Source: an uncultured Gemmatimonadales bacterium
GTDB lineage: Bacteria > Gemmatimonadota > Gemmatimonadetes > Gemmatimonadales > GWC2-71-9
Length of the DNA: 64,000 nt
NCBI GenBank assembly: GCA_963842945.1
Contig: CAWJIM010000023.1
Span: 456,032-520,031, forward strand
Reading direction: 5' to 3'
Shown here one piece after another: positions 17,654-26,778 of the stretch. The translations under genes and the position numbers were made by a program. How positions within the stretch are numbered: the stretch's first letter is position 1; every line of letters begins with the position of its first letter. Under the pieces are notes generated by a model. It searched no databases and was not told where the DNA came from. It was given only the letters and a program-made list of their open reading frames with translations.

Positions 17654-18727
17654 ATGGCCCAGCTGGTACTCGGCATCGAGACCTCCTGCGACGAGACCTC
17701 CGCTTCGGTGGTCCGTTGGGAGAACGGTGTTTCCTCCCTGGCTTCCCTGATCATCCTCTCTCAAGATGTCCATCGCATCTTCGGCGGGGTCGTTCCCGAG
17801 CTGGCCAGCCGCGCGCACGTGCAGGCCATCGGATCCGTGGTCGAGCAGGCGCTGAGAGAAGCCGGTCTTGGCTTTCCGGACCTGGATGGCATCGCCGTAA
17901 CCGCCGGTCCCGGATTGGTGGGGGCTCTCCTGGTCGGAGTGATGTACGGCAAGACGCTGGCATTCAGTGTCGATCGCCCGCTGATCGGGGTCAATCACCT
18001 GGAGGGACACCTCTTCGCGCCCACCCTGGAAGATCCGGAGTTCGAGCCTCCATTTATCGGACTGTTGGTGAGTGGCGGCCATACCATGCTGCTCGACGTT
18101 CCCCAGTGGGGAGAATACCGCCTGCTGGGACAGACTCTCGACGATGCCGCGGGTGAGGCATTCGACAAAGTGGCCAACCTCTTGGGGCTGGGCTATCCGG
18201 GAGGAGCAGCGATCGAACGCCTGGCCCGGGAAGGGCAGCCCGGCCGCTTCCGCTTTCCCAGTCCCATGCTGCAGGAGCTCGATCGCGAGGGCGCTAACCG
18301 CTACGCCTTCTCCTTCAGCGGCCTGAAGACGGCAGTGCTCCGGACCGTTCGGGGCGACGCCAGCGGCAATCACTCCACTTCCCCACCCAATCCGGCCGAT
18401 GTCGCACGAGGATTTCAGGATGCTGCCATCCAGGTACTCGTCGCCAAGACGGCGCATGCGGTCGAGGCGAGTGGGTACGGCCGAGCTATGGTCGGAGGCG
18501 GCGTCGCCTGCAATCGCGCTCTGGTAGCCCAACTGCGAGCGCGACTGGCGGGACAAGCCCGGGTCAGCGTAGCTTCACCGCGGCTCAACACCGACAATGC
18601 CGCCATGATCGCCGCTGCGGGAGCCTGGAGGCTTGCCCGGGGCGAGCGGAGCGGCCTCGATCTCGAGCCTCGGGACGATCTGCCACTCCCTGGCTTGGCC
18701 TTCCACTTACCTGGATCCGTCACATGA
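17654..18727 (+). CDS. tsaD: tRNA N6-adenosine threonylcarbamoyltransferase
   Basis: GIETSCDET, GGVVPELASRAH, NHLEGH, VSGGHT, DDAAGEAFDK, TDNAAMIA. Confidence 0.97.
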   Translation: MAQLVLGIETSCDETSASVVRWENGVSSLASLIILSQDVHRIFGGVVPELASRAHVQAIGSVVEQALREAGLGFPDLDGIAVTAGPGLVGALLVGVMYGKTLAFSVDRPLIGVNHLEGHLFAPTLEDPEFEPPFIGLLVSGGHTMLLDVPQWGEYRLLGQTLDDAAGEAFDKVANLLGLGYPGGAAIERLAREGQPGRFRFPSPMLQELDREGANRYAFSFSGLKTAVLRTVRGDASGNHSTSPPNPADVARGFQDAAIQVLVAKTAHAVEASGYGRAMVGGGVACNRALVAQLRARLAGQARVSVASPRLNTDNAAMIAAAGAWRLARGERSGLDLEPRDDLPLPGLAFHLPGSVT

Positions 18728-19575
18728 CCATCCACCCGTTCATCATCCACCTGGGCCCGCTCGAGGTCACGGGGTACGGGCTGATGCTGATGGTGGCCTT
18801 TCTGATGGGGGGCTGGCTGATCGCCCGCCAGCTTCGAGAGCGTCAACTCCGGGAGGAGTATGCCGCTGACATTGTGGCCGCCGCCGTCATCGGGGGAATC
18901 ATCGGTGCGAAACTCTGGTATGTCGCGCTCACCCGAGACCCCGGCGCCCTGTTCTCCCGGGGTGGACTCGTATGGTATGGCGGGTTCATCGGCGGAGCTC
19001 TCGCGGTGATGCTGAATGGCTGGCGCTTGAAGGTGCCCCTGCGATGGACCATGCAGGTCGCAGCTCCAGCATTGGCGGCGGCGTACGCGCTCGGCCGGGT
19101 AGGGTGTTTTCTGGTGAACGACGACTACGGAAGACCTAGCAATCTCCCCTGGGCGGTGCGCTTCCCCGAGGGGCTGCCGCCGTCGACTGCCGGAAATCTG
19201 CACCAGCTCTTTGGAGTGCCGATTCCGGCGGGCACCGACCCCTCCACGGTCCTGGCCGTCCATCCGACTCAGCTGTACGAAGTGGCGGCCATGCTGCTGG
19301 CCTTTGGCGTCTTGTGGGTCCTGCGGAAGCAGGGCAAGCCGGTCGGCTGGCTTTTCGGCTTATACCTGGTCTTTGCGGGAGTGGAGCGCTTCCTGGTCGA
19401 GATCGTGCGGGCCAAGGACGATCGTTTTCTGGGACCCTTCACCCTGGCTCAGCTGACCAGCGTGATTCTGGTGGCTATCGGAGGAAGCCTGCTAACGCTT
19501 TGGAGAACACGAGAGGGCCCGCTGCCCGGCTTCTATCTGGAAACTGGCAGGAAGCCCCCGCCGTCAAAGATCTAG
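18724..19575 (+). CDS. lgt: Prolipoprotein diacylglyceryl transferase
   Basis: YGLM, GGLVWYGG, GRVGCFL, HPTQLYE, RFLVE. Confidence 0.93.
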   Translation: MTIHPFIIHLGPLEVTGYGLMLMVAFLMGGWLIARQLRERQLREEYAADIVAAAVIGGIIGAKLWYVALTRDPGALFSRGGLVWYGGFIGGALAVMLNGWRLKVPLRWTMQVAAPALAAAYALGRVGCFLVNDDYGRPSNLPWAVRFPEGLPPSTAGNLHQLFGVPIPAGTDPSTVLAVHPTQLYEVAAMLLAFGVLWVLRKQGKPVGWLFGLYLVFAGVERFLVEIVRAKDDRFLGPFTLAQLTSVILVAIGGSLLTLWRTREGPLPGFYLETGRKPPPSKI

Positions 19576-19721
19576 TCGCCTGCACAAGCACGTAAGCACA
19601 GACAGCTTAGTCCATTCCTCGAATTTCCGTACAGCATCTTTACGACTTTTTGCACTCCAGCACCTTCCCATCTTCCCCGCTAAGTAACTCAGGCGTCGTT
19701 GCTTAGCCCAGATGAGCCAAA

Positions 19722-19737
19722 TGGCACTAGCCTTGCT
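19722..19737 (+). promoter_or_regulatory. Sigma54 (-24/-12) promoter
   Basis: TGGCAC-TAGCC-TTGCT matches TGGCAC-N5-TTGCW exactly. Confidence 0.75.
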
Positions 19738-19747
19738 TTACTAATGC

Positions 19748-19890
19748 CCGGGAAGCCCAAGGGCTTCACACGAAAGTGGTAGGTCGAAGAAGGGTGGAGC
19801 GGGCACTTCGGCCCGTCTCCGTAAACTCAGGGGGCGATCTACCACTCACTTACGCAAACGGCCCGTCATCTGACGGGCCGTTTGCATTTG
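19748..19890 (+). ncRNA. Candidate sigma54-dependent small RNA of unknown family
   Basis: Begins ~12 nt after the -12 element; three hairpins; no meaningful ORF; ends in a 15-bp terminator hairpin. Confidence 0.6.
19854..19890. terminator. Intrinsic terminator, possibly bidirectional (sRNA and rraA)
   Basis: gcaaacggcccgtca-tc-tgacgggccgtttgc perfect 15-bp inverted repeat followed by atttg. Confidence 0.75.
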
Positions 19891-19902
19891 CTCCGCGAGG
19901 CG

Positions 19903-20385
19903 TCAGGCTAGCAGATCTCGCTGGGCTACAATAATCCCGTCGCCGTCTGCATAAAGAAACGAGCCAGGGAGAAATGCCACTCCAGCAAAGGTAAGCGGGG
20001 TTCCTCGGGTGCCGGTTCCCTGTTTGCCGCTCCGGAGCGGTACGCTGTTGAGGGCCCGTATTCCGACCGGGATTTGACTCAGCTCCGCCGAGTCCCGTAC
20101 GCTGCCATTGATGACCAGTCCCGCCCAGCCGTTCGCGTAAGCCACGCCGGCAAGCCGTCCCCCCACGAGCGCGCAACGACGCGAGCCGCCACCGTCGATT
20201 ACGAGGACTCGCCCCCCTCCAGCGGTCTCCAGGATCTGCCGAACGAGCGCATTGTCCTCAAATACGCTCAGGGTCTCGATCGGGCCGCTGAACTTCGCCA
20301 GGCCGCCATACTCCCGAAACTCCGGCTGGGCAACCTGCACCAGCTCAGGGTAGCCATCGCACAGATCAGCGGTGGTGAACTCCAC
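19903..20385 (-). CDS. rraA: RraA family (RNase E regulator / HMG aldolase)
   Basis: TADLCD, FEDNALV, VIDGGGS, GSVRD, YADGDG. Confidence 0.92.
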   Translation of the reverse strand: MEFTTADLCDGYPELVQVAQPEFREYGGLAKFSGPIETLSVFEDNALVRQILETAGGGRVLVIDGGGSRRCALVGGRLAGVAYANGWAGLVINGSVRDSAELSQIPVGIRALNSVPLRSGKQGTGTRGTPLTFAGVAFLPGSFLYADGDGIIVAQRDLLA

Positions 20386-22515
20386 TCAGCTCTTGCGAGA
20401 GCGCGACTCAGGCGCGTCGGTGAGGTTTCCCTTCATCCGCTCGACTTCGGAGCGCATCTCGCTCAAGTCCGCCTCCATCCGCTCGAGAGAGCGGAGCAGC
20501 TCCCGGCTTGCCTCCGGGGGAACAGGGGCAGGGATCGCTAGCGGCGGTTCCCGGCGGAGCGGCTCGGGTGGCGGTGATCCAGCCCGATGGCGACGACGGG
20601 GCTCTATGAGAAAGGTCCAGGCAAGGGCCAGGATGAGAAGAGCGACCAGGACCCCCTGCGCCAGCAGCGACTCGACGGTGGGGTAGATACCCAGCGCAGG
20701 GAGCTCGGGGCGCACCAACGACGATGGTGGTCGAGATCAGCCCCCCTCCTGTAGCTCGGCCACAGCTTTCCCGGCAAAAACAAATGCCATGTAGTACAGG
20801 AATGCGCTGGTCACCCCGAAGAAGGGCTTCAACGGAAGCCGCAGGCCGAACCGGTTGATGGCCAGGTAAACCACCGACCATGACCAGTGACCCGAGCAGG
20901 ATGCCGGCCAGGATCGGCATGGTGGCGGCAGGTGAGCCGCCAGTCACGAACAGAGCCTTGTAGAAGAGCACGGTCTCGAAGCCCTCGCGGTACACCGCCA
21001 GAAACGCCGCCGACGCGAGCGCCAGACCGGAGCCGCTCGTGAGCGCGTCCTGCACCTTGCTCTTCACGAAGTGGTTCCACTTGGCCACCTCCATTTTCGA
21101 GAGCAGCCAGTAGCTCACATAGAAGAGCACCACGGTAGCGAGGGCCATGGTCAGGCCCTCCAGCGCCTCTCGTTTGGCGGAGGTCAGGTGAAAGATGGTC
21201 TCCAGCGCAAACGCGGTGAGCAGGCTGGCCGCGGCCGCGGCACCGACTCCGATGTGAATGTCGCGCTTGCGATGGGCCGCTCCCATCTTGGCCAGAAAGG
21301 TCATCAGGGCGCCCACCAGCAGAATTGCCTCGAAGCCTTCCCGCAGCAGAATGACAAACGATTGTACGAACAGGTTTACGTGCGGACGGCTGGTCGGCCA
21401 GTGTCCGCTCGGCGTTCTCCAGATCGGCGTCGAGCTGCCGGCGAATTCGGTCCAGCTCCGCGCCGGTGGCTCCTCCGGCCACTCGGGTACGCAGCGACGC
21501 AAATCCGGCCTCCAGGTCTGCGGCCAGCCCGGGATTCTTGGCTCGGACCGACCGCTCCACCTGCTCGAACGTCATGTACGCGTCGAAGGCCCGTGTGCTC
21601 GCCGAGGTGTCACCGGTCCGAGCCAGGGCATAAACCGATTCAATCTGGGCTCGCACCTCGGTGAAAACCCGGGCATCGGCAGCGGCGGTGCGCATCCGCC
21701 CGAAATCGACGGACGGCTGCAACCCTGGCGAGACCGGTTGCTCCGTCATTCCGCTGCCCCAGAGCGGCGAGCAACTGGGTATCGGACATGCGGCCGGTAC
21801 TTCCAAAGGACTGAAGCGCGGGGGGAACGCTCCCCGAGTCGTTGGGGCAGGCGAAGTACACTGGCATAGAGTGCAACGGCCCAGCGGTCCTCTGCCGACA
21901 ACCGGGTCTCGAAGGCCGGCATGGCCGTCCCGACGACGCCGATGCTCACTCGGCGGTAATAATCCAGGGGCGATTGATCTCGGAGCGCGGCGCGCATCCG
22001 ACGAGGTCGGCGGGTTTGGGATCCATCCCTTTTGCCAGTGGCCCATCGCCGCGGCCAAGGTCTCCGTGACAGGAGGCGCAGTTGGTCCGGAAGACCTCGG
22101 CGCCCCGTGCCAGCGACGGCGCCTCAGGTGGAACCTGATCGAGTGGGACGCCGAGCGGGGCGAAGCGAGCTGTCAAGCCGGCTTACGCGGGCGTCCAGCG
22201 AATCCGGAGAGCCAGCAGACTCACGAGGGCTATCAGCGAATCGATACGGCTGATAGTGCGGGAGGCGGAATTTGGCGGGCAAGCAGGGCCGCGGATCGCC
22301 GAGACTCCTGGAGGAACAGCCGAGCTTCGTCCACTTCGGCCTGAGACACGATCCGGCCGTTGACGATCCCAACTCGGTATTCCTGTGACGGCCAGTTGCG
22401 CCGTAGCCGCGACTCGGCGAACAGCAGGCGCCACGTCGGGCGTGGAATCGGGAGCTTGGAGTGGAGCGACAAGGGTGGACGCAACCAAGGCGGCCGCGCT
22501 GAGAATCATTTTCAT
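20386..22515 (-). CDS. Cytochrome c / FTR1-family iron permease fusion; many frameshifts
   Basis: Fragments give a signal peptide, heme motif CASCHG..G.GDGP, GTAMPAF and two REGFE motifs (LREGFEA, YREGFET); C-terminal LGIYPTVESL. Confidence 0.85.
22500..22514. promoter_or_regulatory. Fur-box-like 7-1-7 inverted repeat overlapping the start of the iron permease
   Basis: TGAGAAT-C-ATTTTCA versus consensus TGATAAT-N-ATTATCA (2 mismatches). Confidence 0.55.
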
Positions 22516-25431: not shown

Positions 25432-26778
25432 CTAGGCGGTGATGTTGTAGCGTTTGATCTTGTTGATCAGCGTCGCCCGCGAGATGCCAAGCTCGACAGC
25501 CGCGCGCGTCCGGTTGCCTGCGTGGTGCTTGAGCGTGCGCTCGATGTGCTGGCGCTCGAGGTCTTCGAGACTGAGCGGCGTGTGCCGCCGATCTCCCAGT
25601 CCTGGCCGGGCCCGGAACTCTCCCGGTAGGTGCTCCACGCTCACGGCCGGCTGCCCCCGCCCCAGGATAAGTGCCCGCTCCAGGACGTTGCGCATTTCCC
25701 GAACGTTTCCGGGCCAGGGATACGCCAGCAGCCGCTCCAGCACTTCACTCGACAGGGCGCCAGGGCCCTCGGGCAGCTCCGACTGCAAGTCCCCCATGAT
25801 TCTGGTCAGCAGCGCGAGCCGGTCCTCCCGGGACCGATCCCGCACCGCCGGAAGCGTTAACGGCATGACGCTGAGGCGATAGTAAAGGTCTTCGCGAAAA
25901 GCCGCGGTTTCGACTTCGGCTTGAAGATTCTTGTTGGTGGCTGCAACCAGGCGCACGTCCACCGTGATCTCGCGAGTGCCGCCGAGACGGCGAAAGGTCT
26001 TCGTTTCCAGGACCTTCAACAGCTTTGGCTGTAACTCGGGGGCCAAGTCACCGATCTCGTCCAGAAAAATGGTTCCCCGGTCTGCAATCTCGAAGAGACC
26101 CTGCTTGCGGTCTTTGGCGTCGGTAAACGCGCCCTTTTCATGACCAAACAGCTCGGAATCGAGAAAGGTGGCGTTGAGTCCCGCGCAGTTCACCTCCACG
26201 AACGGGGCCTTGGAACGCGGGCTGAGGTCGTGGATCATCCGGGCCACCCAGCCCTTGCCGGTTCCACTCTCACCATTGAGGAGCACCGTTGTCCGCTCGC
26301 TCTGGGCCAGCAGAGCCACCTGATGGGCGAAGTCCTGCATGCCCGAGGAGGCACCCAGGGAATCGAGCCCATGGCCCGGGGCGCTCTGTACCAGCAAGGC
26401 TTCATTGATTCGGCGGAGCCGCGCCTTGTCGGCCACCCGGGCAGTGGCGGCGGCGAGGTGCTCCATATCCACCGGTTTGGTCAGGAAGTTTTCGGCACCC
26501 ATCTGCATGGCGCGAACGGCGGTGGCCACGTCGGTCTGCCCGGTCAGGAGGATCACTGAGGCGTCCCGCTGGCGCAGGTGCTCCAGCACCTCCATTCCGT
26601 CCATTCCGGGCAACCCCAGATCCAGGATGACAACTTCTGGACGCAGACGATCGAAGGTGGCGAGTCCGGCCTCGCCGCTAAGCTCCCGCGTTACTTCATA
26701 GCCGAAGCGCTCGAAGTAGTTCCCTATGCTGCGTAGAACATCGACATCGTCATCGATCAGCAAGACCGAGCCGGCCAT
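25432..26778 (-). CDS. Sigma54-dependent response regulator (NtrC/AtoC-type REC-AAA+-HTH)
   Basis: LIDDD, LDLGLP, GESGTGK, SELFGHEKGAFTDA, FLDEIG, FREDLYYRL, WPGNVRE, Fis-type HTH. Confidence 0.95.
   Translation of the reverse strand: MAGSVLLIDDDVDVLRSIGNYFERFGYEVTRELSGEAGLATFDRLRPEVVILDLGLPGMDGMEVLEHLRQRDASVILLTGQTDVATAVRAMQMGAENFLTKPVDMEHLAAATARVADKARLRRINEALLVQSAPGHGLDSLGASSGMQDFAHQVALLAQSERTTVLLNGESGTGKGWVARMIHDLSPRSKAPFVEVNCAGLNATFLDSELFGHEKGAFTDAKDRKQGLFEIADRGTIFLDEIGDLAPELQPKLLKVLETKTFRRLGGTREITVDVRLVAATNKNLQAEVETAAFREDLYYRLSVMPLTLPAVRDRSREDRLALLTRIMGDLQSELPEGPGALSSEVLERLLAYPWPGNVREMRNVLERALILGRGQPAVSVEHLPGEFRARPGLGDRRHTPLSLEDLERQHIERTLKHHAGNRTRAAVELGISRATLINKIKRYNITA

Follow-up and report, generated by a model that had tools for sequence, protein, structure and literature searches.

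The lgt-rraA gap and its features

The window, by which we mean the whole stretch of DNA analyzed here, comprises 64,000 nucleotides from an uncultured Gemmatimonadales bacterium (assembly GCA_963842945.1, contig CAWJIM010000023.1). Downstream of lgt lies a gap for which a sigma-54-dependent small RNA had been proposed from the sequence alone (hereafter the original prediction). As stated there, the gap holds no protein gene: no long ORF lies inside the RNA, and the next gene, rraA, is convergent. The features to which we refer are the following.

18724..19575, + strand: lgt, the constant upstream neighbor (gene calls, and synteny across the mapped loci)
19562..19578, no strand: distal candidate enhancer box, a GTC-N9-GAC palindrome at about -186, overlapping the lgt stop codon
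19628..19644, no strand: proximal candidate enhancer box, a GTC-N9-GAC palindrome at about -119
19679..19707, no strand: inverted repeat of the original prediction, more likely an IHF-type bending region
19722..19736, + strand: sigma-54 -24/-12 promoter motif
19748..19891, + strand: predicted small RNA of about 145 nt, its ends placed from promoter spacing and terminator
19752..19767, + strand: SL1, the 5' hairpin, variable in sequence and repeated ahead of each core in tandem forms
19776..19845, + strand: SL2 core, with an 11-bp outer stem, purine-rich internal loop, 4-bp helix, bulge and variable apical arm
19786..19795, + strand: invariant 5' word GAAGAAGRGU, found in the long form only
19825..19835, + strand: invariant 3' word RCUCAGGGGGC
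19854..19885, + strand: terminator hairpin of 14 bp with an interrupted U-tract
19903..20385, - strand: rraA-family gene, convergent with the RNA gene (gene calls, synteny)
25432..26778, - strand: response regulator/sigma-54 activator with receiver, AAA+ and Fis-type HTH domains and the loop-1 variant GAFTDA

Among the loci mapped, rraA adjoins the RNA gene in the window's genus only, and neither gene calls nor synteny revealed a downstream gene that the RNA could control in cis. The spacer between the two invariant words ranges from 28 to 32 nt across 119 homologous loci, which excludes a reading frame; a small-protein reading was therefore rejected, a conserved frame being absent across these loci. 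The terminator that had been described is present, with a stem of 14 rather than 15 bp, and is probably common to the RNA gene and the convergent rraA operon. Beyond rraA, a cytochrome c/FTR1 iron permease gene (20386-22515) is split over several overlapping frames; premature ends also occur in pnp (contig C16) and in one activator (contig C19), and these frame breaks are probably assembly indels.

The promoter claimed for the RNA is perfect, TGGCAC-N5-TTGC(T) at 19722-19737, and strict sites of this TGGCAC-N5-TTGC type number only 27 in the whole 4.3-Mb genome. Promoter types were counted in the 119 homologous loci, sorted by the stem type of the core. The sigma-54 motif is kept downstream of lgt in all 77 untruncated loci of the window's type and occurs in 15 of 19 loci of a third type, while the second type carries a sigma-70 pattern (19/21 loci) and no sigma-54 motif (0/21). 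Across these loci, the predicted promoter type tracks lineage. Given the sequence observed, sigma-54 RNA polymerase very probably binds this -24/-12 promoter.

A covarying stem presents an invariant loop

The segment 19745-19895 has a predicted folding energy of -79.9 kcal/mol (z = -6.54), and none of 200 shuffled sequences was equally stable. SL1, SL2 and the apical hairpin fold as originally drawn, with one SL1 pair showing nine compensatory changes in 30 sequences. The closing stem of SL2 does comprise 12 bp in the window's genome, but only 11 of these pairs are conserved (19776-19786 with 19835-19845). In 96 non-redundant cores, 98.4% of the cells are paired and 15 of 24 pairs have compensatory changes, values reached by none of 500 shuffles; nine of the 11 outer-stem pairs covary. 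Most of these cores were picked by the two invariant words, and both words are nevertheless kept in all 28 hits that were picked by the covariance model alone. Mean identity to the window is 0.96 in the core, compared with 0.71 in the lgt end. Inside the core, the 5' side of the 4-bp helix alternates between G and A while its 3' strand is fixed, and the G-run of the 3' word is predicted to be unpaired in the long form (p ~0.9). The covariation thus supports an RNA that folds so that an outer stem, free to vary, would present a fixed, purine-rich loop ending in the G-run.

Two cores are present in 12 of the 119 loci, nine times inside one unit and three times as tandem genes. The nine one-unit loci contain two SL1-plus-core units 56-62 nt apart, followed by a single terminator. 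One genome (G124) has a third, relocated core copy away from lgt (L289:7780-7910), with a terminator and no recognizable promoter. The window's genome yielded no second core up to E = 2, on which ground a cis copy elsewhere in that genome was rejected, and none of its mRNA leaders or rRNA contains a copy of the core motif. We also rejected mimicry of 16S helices 16/17, which we take the core to resemble: the words are absent from the genome's own rRNA operon, and the bulge varies.

A cmscan search of 4227 Rfam families (E up to 5) returned no family at threshold, the best match being a terminator hit to sX6 (26.6 bits against a threshold of 40), and five homologous loci likewise matched no family at threshold. 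A match to 6S or SRP RNA had been named as grounds for abandoning the prediction; neither RF00013 nor RF00169 hit the locus. The 70-nt core also differs from the ~180-nt rod with central bubble of 6S RNA, of which no copy (RF00013) was found in the window's 87%-complete genome, zapA abutting rny and leaving no space for one there. Bacterial small SRP RNA was rejected, as SRP RNA (RF00169) sits elsewhere, on contig C2.

By blastn, the element is present in 32 of 36 same-genus genomes; in G064, which belongs to this genus, the RNA and promoter are deleted together. The full-length covariance model gave strong hits (E < 1e-12) in 23 of 61 family genomes and in none of 89 genomes of two other families, where the weak hits (E > 1e-5) are probably terminator matches. 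With a model of the core alone, 26 strong hits were obtained among 71 family genomes, and one weak hit among 79 other genomes of the phylum. A scan for the two-word pattern found at least 120 stretches and, among the matches listed, 79 of the 80 with titles were Gemmatimonadota; one archaeal and one viral match lacked the stems and were dropped as chance.

The literature searched, which did not extend to supplements of motif-discovery papers that may hold non-Rfam motifs, yielded no published description of this family (PMC12316311 does not mention it) and no described regulatory RNA of Gemmatimonadota. With a conserved -24/-12 promoter, no ORF, a conserved structure and a terminator, the element has the features of a sigma-54-dependent trans-acting small RNA. 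Covariation, synteny and the lack of an Rfam match thus bear out the proposal of an undescribed, conserved and structured RNA gene: judged by its sequence conservation, the lgt gap holds a real, uncatalogued, predicted small RNA gene of soil Gemmatimonadales.

A minimal form in another family

Three genomes of another family contain an RNA of ~95 nt at the same locus after lgt, with the same promoter layout. They were found among 30 genomes without a strong model hit, the other 27 of which have no such RNA after lgt (in one, the contig ends there). This short form occurs in 12 of the 13 genomes of its genus, and a relaxed pattern detects a sigma-54-like motif in all 25 distinct copies. The core of the short form consists of a simple hairpin, lacks the GAAGAA strand and has only CU(C/G)AGGGGG(G)CG in common with the long form. 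Homology of the two forms rests on position, promoter and this one word, the covariance models missing the short form. As the sole element common to both, the G-run is, from this comparison, likely to be the working site. A third form was also sought in 40 genomes where the activator is intact and the RNA missing, and was rejected: the 10 matches were fewer than in the control, and none had the architecture.

Candidate enhancer boxes and activator

Across 112 long-form promoters, the distal GTC-N9-GAC box clusters at -189 to -174 and the proximal box at -121 to -118. The window's copies match 9/12 and 7/12 consensus positions, with matrix scores of 17.1 and 12.3, respectively. When the 65 sigma-54-like sites of the genome are ranked by the box matrix, the RNA promoter comes first (29.5 vs 14.8), although this ranking is partly circular. 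GTC-N9-GAC boxes also occur in the short form, near -151 and -132, and the third stem type mostly has another palindrome, CGG(A/C)A-N5-T(T/G)CCG (13/17).

The inverted repeat at 19679-19707 exists as originally reported, with 9 of 10 positions matched, but is hardly conserved, a perfect repeat of at least 8 bp being present in only 4 of 121 homologous promoters. The comparison indicates that this repeat is not the enhancer, and that the conserved boxes at about -186 and -119 are the candidates instead. IHF-like words at -80 to -40 are found in 68 of the 121 promoters, as against 33.5 +/- 4.2 in shuffles, which makes an IHF-type bending region the more likely identity of 19679-19707; the window's own stretch matches weakly, with nothing reaching 6/9.

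It had been guessed that the response regulator at 25432-26778 drives the RNA gene. Its GAFTDA loop is listed as an active variant compatible with activation (PMC4641369). The activator lies 5-8 kb from the long form where assembly permits (5.5 kb in the window, in the convergent operon) and 13-40 kb from the short form. RNA-bearing genomes supplied 23 of the 34 orthologues compared. All 15 of these genomes with a GTC-N9-GAC box score of at least 9/12 have kept loop 1 intact, and all eight whose best box scores 8/12 or less have lost it, four of the eight having the sigma-70 promoter and four the other palindrome. Two genomes of the same clade that lack the RNA have likewise lost loop 1, and G064 has an altered version; since the losses fall in a single clade of the tree, they represent one or two events only. 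This co-variation with promoter type gives the guess comparative support. Of five box-carrying genomes, only one has an orthologue of a paralogous activator that shows the same variant of the loop. It is therefore probable, judging from the co-variation, that the response regulator in its phosphorylated state opens the promoter from the two GTC-N9-GAC boxes, to which it would bind, the intervening DNA undergoing IHF-type bending.

Against this reading, an intact activator is kept in eight sampled RNA-less genomes. In genome G259, GTC-N9-GAC-like boxes precede a sigma-54 DUF4402 gene while the activator copy has lost loop 1, so the box is not exclusive to this activator. Co-variation of the HTH with the new enhancer of genus g19 was sought and rejected; the recognition helix is unchanged there, and another activator must therefore serve the g19 promoter.

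Several further observations concern sigma-54 loci and kinases. An enhancer-plus-promoter pattern searched over 301 genomes mostly matched by chance outside the known loci. Secreted DUF4402 proteins with a sigma-54 promoter and GTC-N9-GAC-like boxes upstream are encoded at L320:1715-2215 (G028) and L346:926-1432 (G259), and none was found in the window's genome. In G052, which has an intact activator and no RNA, a tRNA is followed by two GTC-N9-GAC-like boxes with a sigma-54 promoter and then a periplasmic-binding-protein-like gene, named by eye (L345, ~1500-2935), a possible other target. Both pilA and pilM, on contig C19 of genome G000 (~78800-84700), are preceded by sigma-54 promoters whose upstream words are unlike the boxes of the RNA gene, and two activators lie nearby. 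In genera g28, g38, g19, g20 and g8, the gene immediately upstream of the activator encodes a soluble GAF/PAS histidine kinase (974 aa in G103, L281:154-3078), which is absent from that position in the other genera sampled; the window's genome has no clear orthologue (best 30-39% over the kinase part).

Possible modes of action

Taken together, we tentatively read the locus as a stand-alone gene for a trans-acting small RNA that serves as a protein-binding decoy. In this model, which may well hold but which we put slightly below an even chance, the purine-rich loop would be the binding site of a putative protein, the RNA would titrate that protein under the control of a signal, and repeated cores would raise its capacity. 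We favor a decoy on account of the invariance of both loop strands, the free stems and the repeated cores. The failure to find Hfq in any of six genomes tested also counts on the side of the decoy. Against it, no partner protein was found, mRNA leaders and rRNA of the window's genome hold no copy of the motif, the short form lacks the GAAGAA strand, which a protein reading two strands should need, and the variation of the 4-bp helix on its 5' side only would equally fit pairing in trans. RapZ (PF03668) was not found in five of five genomes, with a positive control in 7/14, while CsrA was present in one of six. This CsrA (G094:C1:1409363-1409515) lies in a genome with tandem cores.

The unpaired G-run shared by both forms and the one-sided variation of the 4-bp helix make base-pairing the nearest competitor of the decoy. 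It is quite possible, if a little less so, that the RNA pairs independently of Hfq, its G-run acting as a toehold on C/U-rich stretches and unzipping the weak 4-bp helix. Such a mechanism would suit the G-run as the only word common to long and short forms, its predicted single-stranded state in the long form, and a helix whose 3' strand is fixed opposite alternating G and A; G-U pairs would, moreover, mask targets in exact searches. GlmZ activates an mRNA by capturing its anti-Shine-Dalgarno strand, and the RBS-like G-run could activate mRNAs in a similar manner. Activation by pairing is also described in PMC4152352.

However, base-pairing leaves the invariant 5' strand without explanation, and no conserved perfect 10-nt complement was found. 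In G162, a genome that is 100% complete and carries the RNA, the only perfect 10-nt complement of the invariant strand is the antisense of the RNA gene itself. Three target candidates failed. An 11-nt perfect complement on contig C19, in a leader, sits next to a tRNA-like repeat, and conservation extends to that repeat only; pnp codons 12-14 are not conserved in 20 readable genomes of 29; and the leader of an ECF sigma factor gene is not conserved in 21 loci. Twenty other perfect 10-mers from four genomes have no orthologous site in common. In a weak test, complements were neither enriched nor avoided, with 141 matches vs 314 for controls in 26 RNA-bearing genomes and 146 vs 312 in 26 genomes without the RNA. 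The target screen relied on crude gene calls from a single genome, and imperfect, G-U-rich pairing is beyond its reach. As a separate observation, contig C19 of G000 contains three copies of a tRNA-like 3' fragment within ~5 kb (553727-558925), which suggests stacked integrations.

We consider it improbable that the core serves as a scaffold or binds a small molecule or the 3' tail of 16S rRNA. Aptamers typically have invariant purine-rich loops set between covarying stems, as seen here; the G-run can also pair with the genome's own 16S 3' end (-12.1 kcal/mol). Conversely, there is no downstream gene for control in cis, the bases that extend the 16S pairing differ between genera, and the short form is a hairpin only.

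Eleven sequencing runs recorded as RNA contain part of the RNA gene sequence; runs with fewer than five words of the sequence, if not examined, were excluded as evidence. In each of the four examined, a contig covers the core at 95% or more and extends past a predicted end of the RNA: one starts 16 nt ahead of the predicted start, at 19732, one continues for 78 nt beyond the terminator, and one includes 187 nt upstream. DNA carry-over, read-through or joined convergent transcripts could explain this overrun. Although the overrun in 4/4 contigs and the lack of an identified terminator between lgt and the promoter would fit a DNA-level element, or a conserved structure at the 3' end of the lgt or rraA operon, rather than an independent transcript, we consider this very improbable given the dedicated promoter in nearly all copies and its sigma-70 replacement in one lineage (19/21 loci), the joint deletion of RNA and promoter in G064, and a G-U-tolerant covariation that indicates single-stranded RNA of this orientation.

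Relationship to known systems

At the promoter level, the closest analogues are Pxr and GlmY/GlmZ. Pxr of Myxococcus xanthus and its relatives has a sigma-54 promoter, three predicted stem-loops, a linked sigma-54 response regulator (nla19), tandem paralogues in one lineage and a narrow range (PMC5568312), all of which have counterparts here; its direct targets were long unknown (PMC11928866). Unlike Pxr, the present RNA belongs to another phylum, its activator is encoded at a distance of 5.5 kb by a gene of a convergent operon, and its tandem cores are often in one transcription unit. It also matches no Rfam family, whereas Rfam presumably contains a Pxr model.

GlmY and GlmZ of Enterobacteriaceae, controlled by GlrK/GlrR, combine sigma-54 promoters with palindromic TGTC...GACA boxes and IHF sites, and a lineage-specific switch from sigma-54 to sigma-70 is described for glmZ (PMC3045617). 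Both traits are paralleled here, the boxes and IHF sites at sequence level only, and GlmY is itself a protein decoy according to PMC4152352. The differences are several. Box spacing is 9 in 63 of 121 promoters and 10 in only three, as against the spacing of 10 in the GlrR site TGTC-N10-GACA; RapZ was not found in the five genomes searched; and again there is no Rfam match. Nor is there a glmS-leader pairing site, both glmS copies abutting the upstream gene, inside which the best duplexes of the region fall (-16.2 and -13.6).

CrcZ/CrcY and CsrB/RsmYZ are two-component-controlled titrating RNAs with repeated binding sites, CrcZ being sigma-54-dependent. They resemble the decoy design proposed here, with repeated cores at some loci, but their repeated GGA loops and A-rich runs are absent from this RNA, and Hfq was found in none of six genomes tested and CsrA in one of six; the single GGA of the RNA is paired and changes to GAA in homologues. 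The sigma-54-dependent ncRNAs of Desulfovibrio vulgaris, another phylum, are listed as targets of single enhancer-binding proteins (PMC4641369), a likeness by description only.

New here are the covarying outer stem around an invariant loop, the short form, the co-variation of activator loop and promoter, and the repeated cores in one unit. One may speculate that these belong to a new post-transcriptional system, although we hold this more doubtful than the decoy reading itself: a two-component/sigma-54 switch would drive an RNA decoy, and the G-run loop of this decoy would titrate a novel type of RNA-binding protein, in genomes where Hfq, RapZ and mostly CsrA are not found. The RNA would be important enough that, after loss of the activator loop, one lineage gained a sigma-70 promoter and another a new enhancer together with a doubled core.

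Gemmatimonadota are abundant soil bacteria. The family offers a defined RNA, a minimal natural variant that hints at the working site, cases of rewiring in nature, and a named activator candidate together with the corresponding DNA boxes, and the activator-promoter and RNA-partner questions can be addressed in vitro without culture of the host. A protein partner, should there be one, would represent a new RNA-binding regulator.

The two glmS copies lie in near-identical contexts on contigs C19 and C21, which is perhaps a sign of bin contamination, and five cold-shock protein paralogues are encoded on contigs C5, C6, C16, C19 and C24 of G000.
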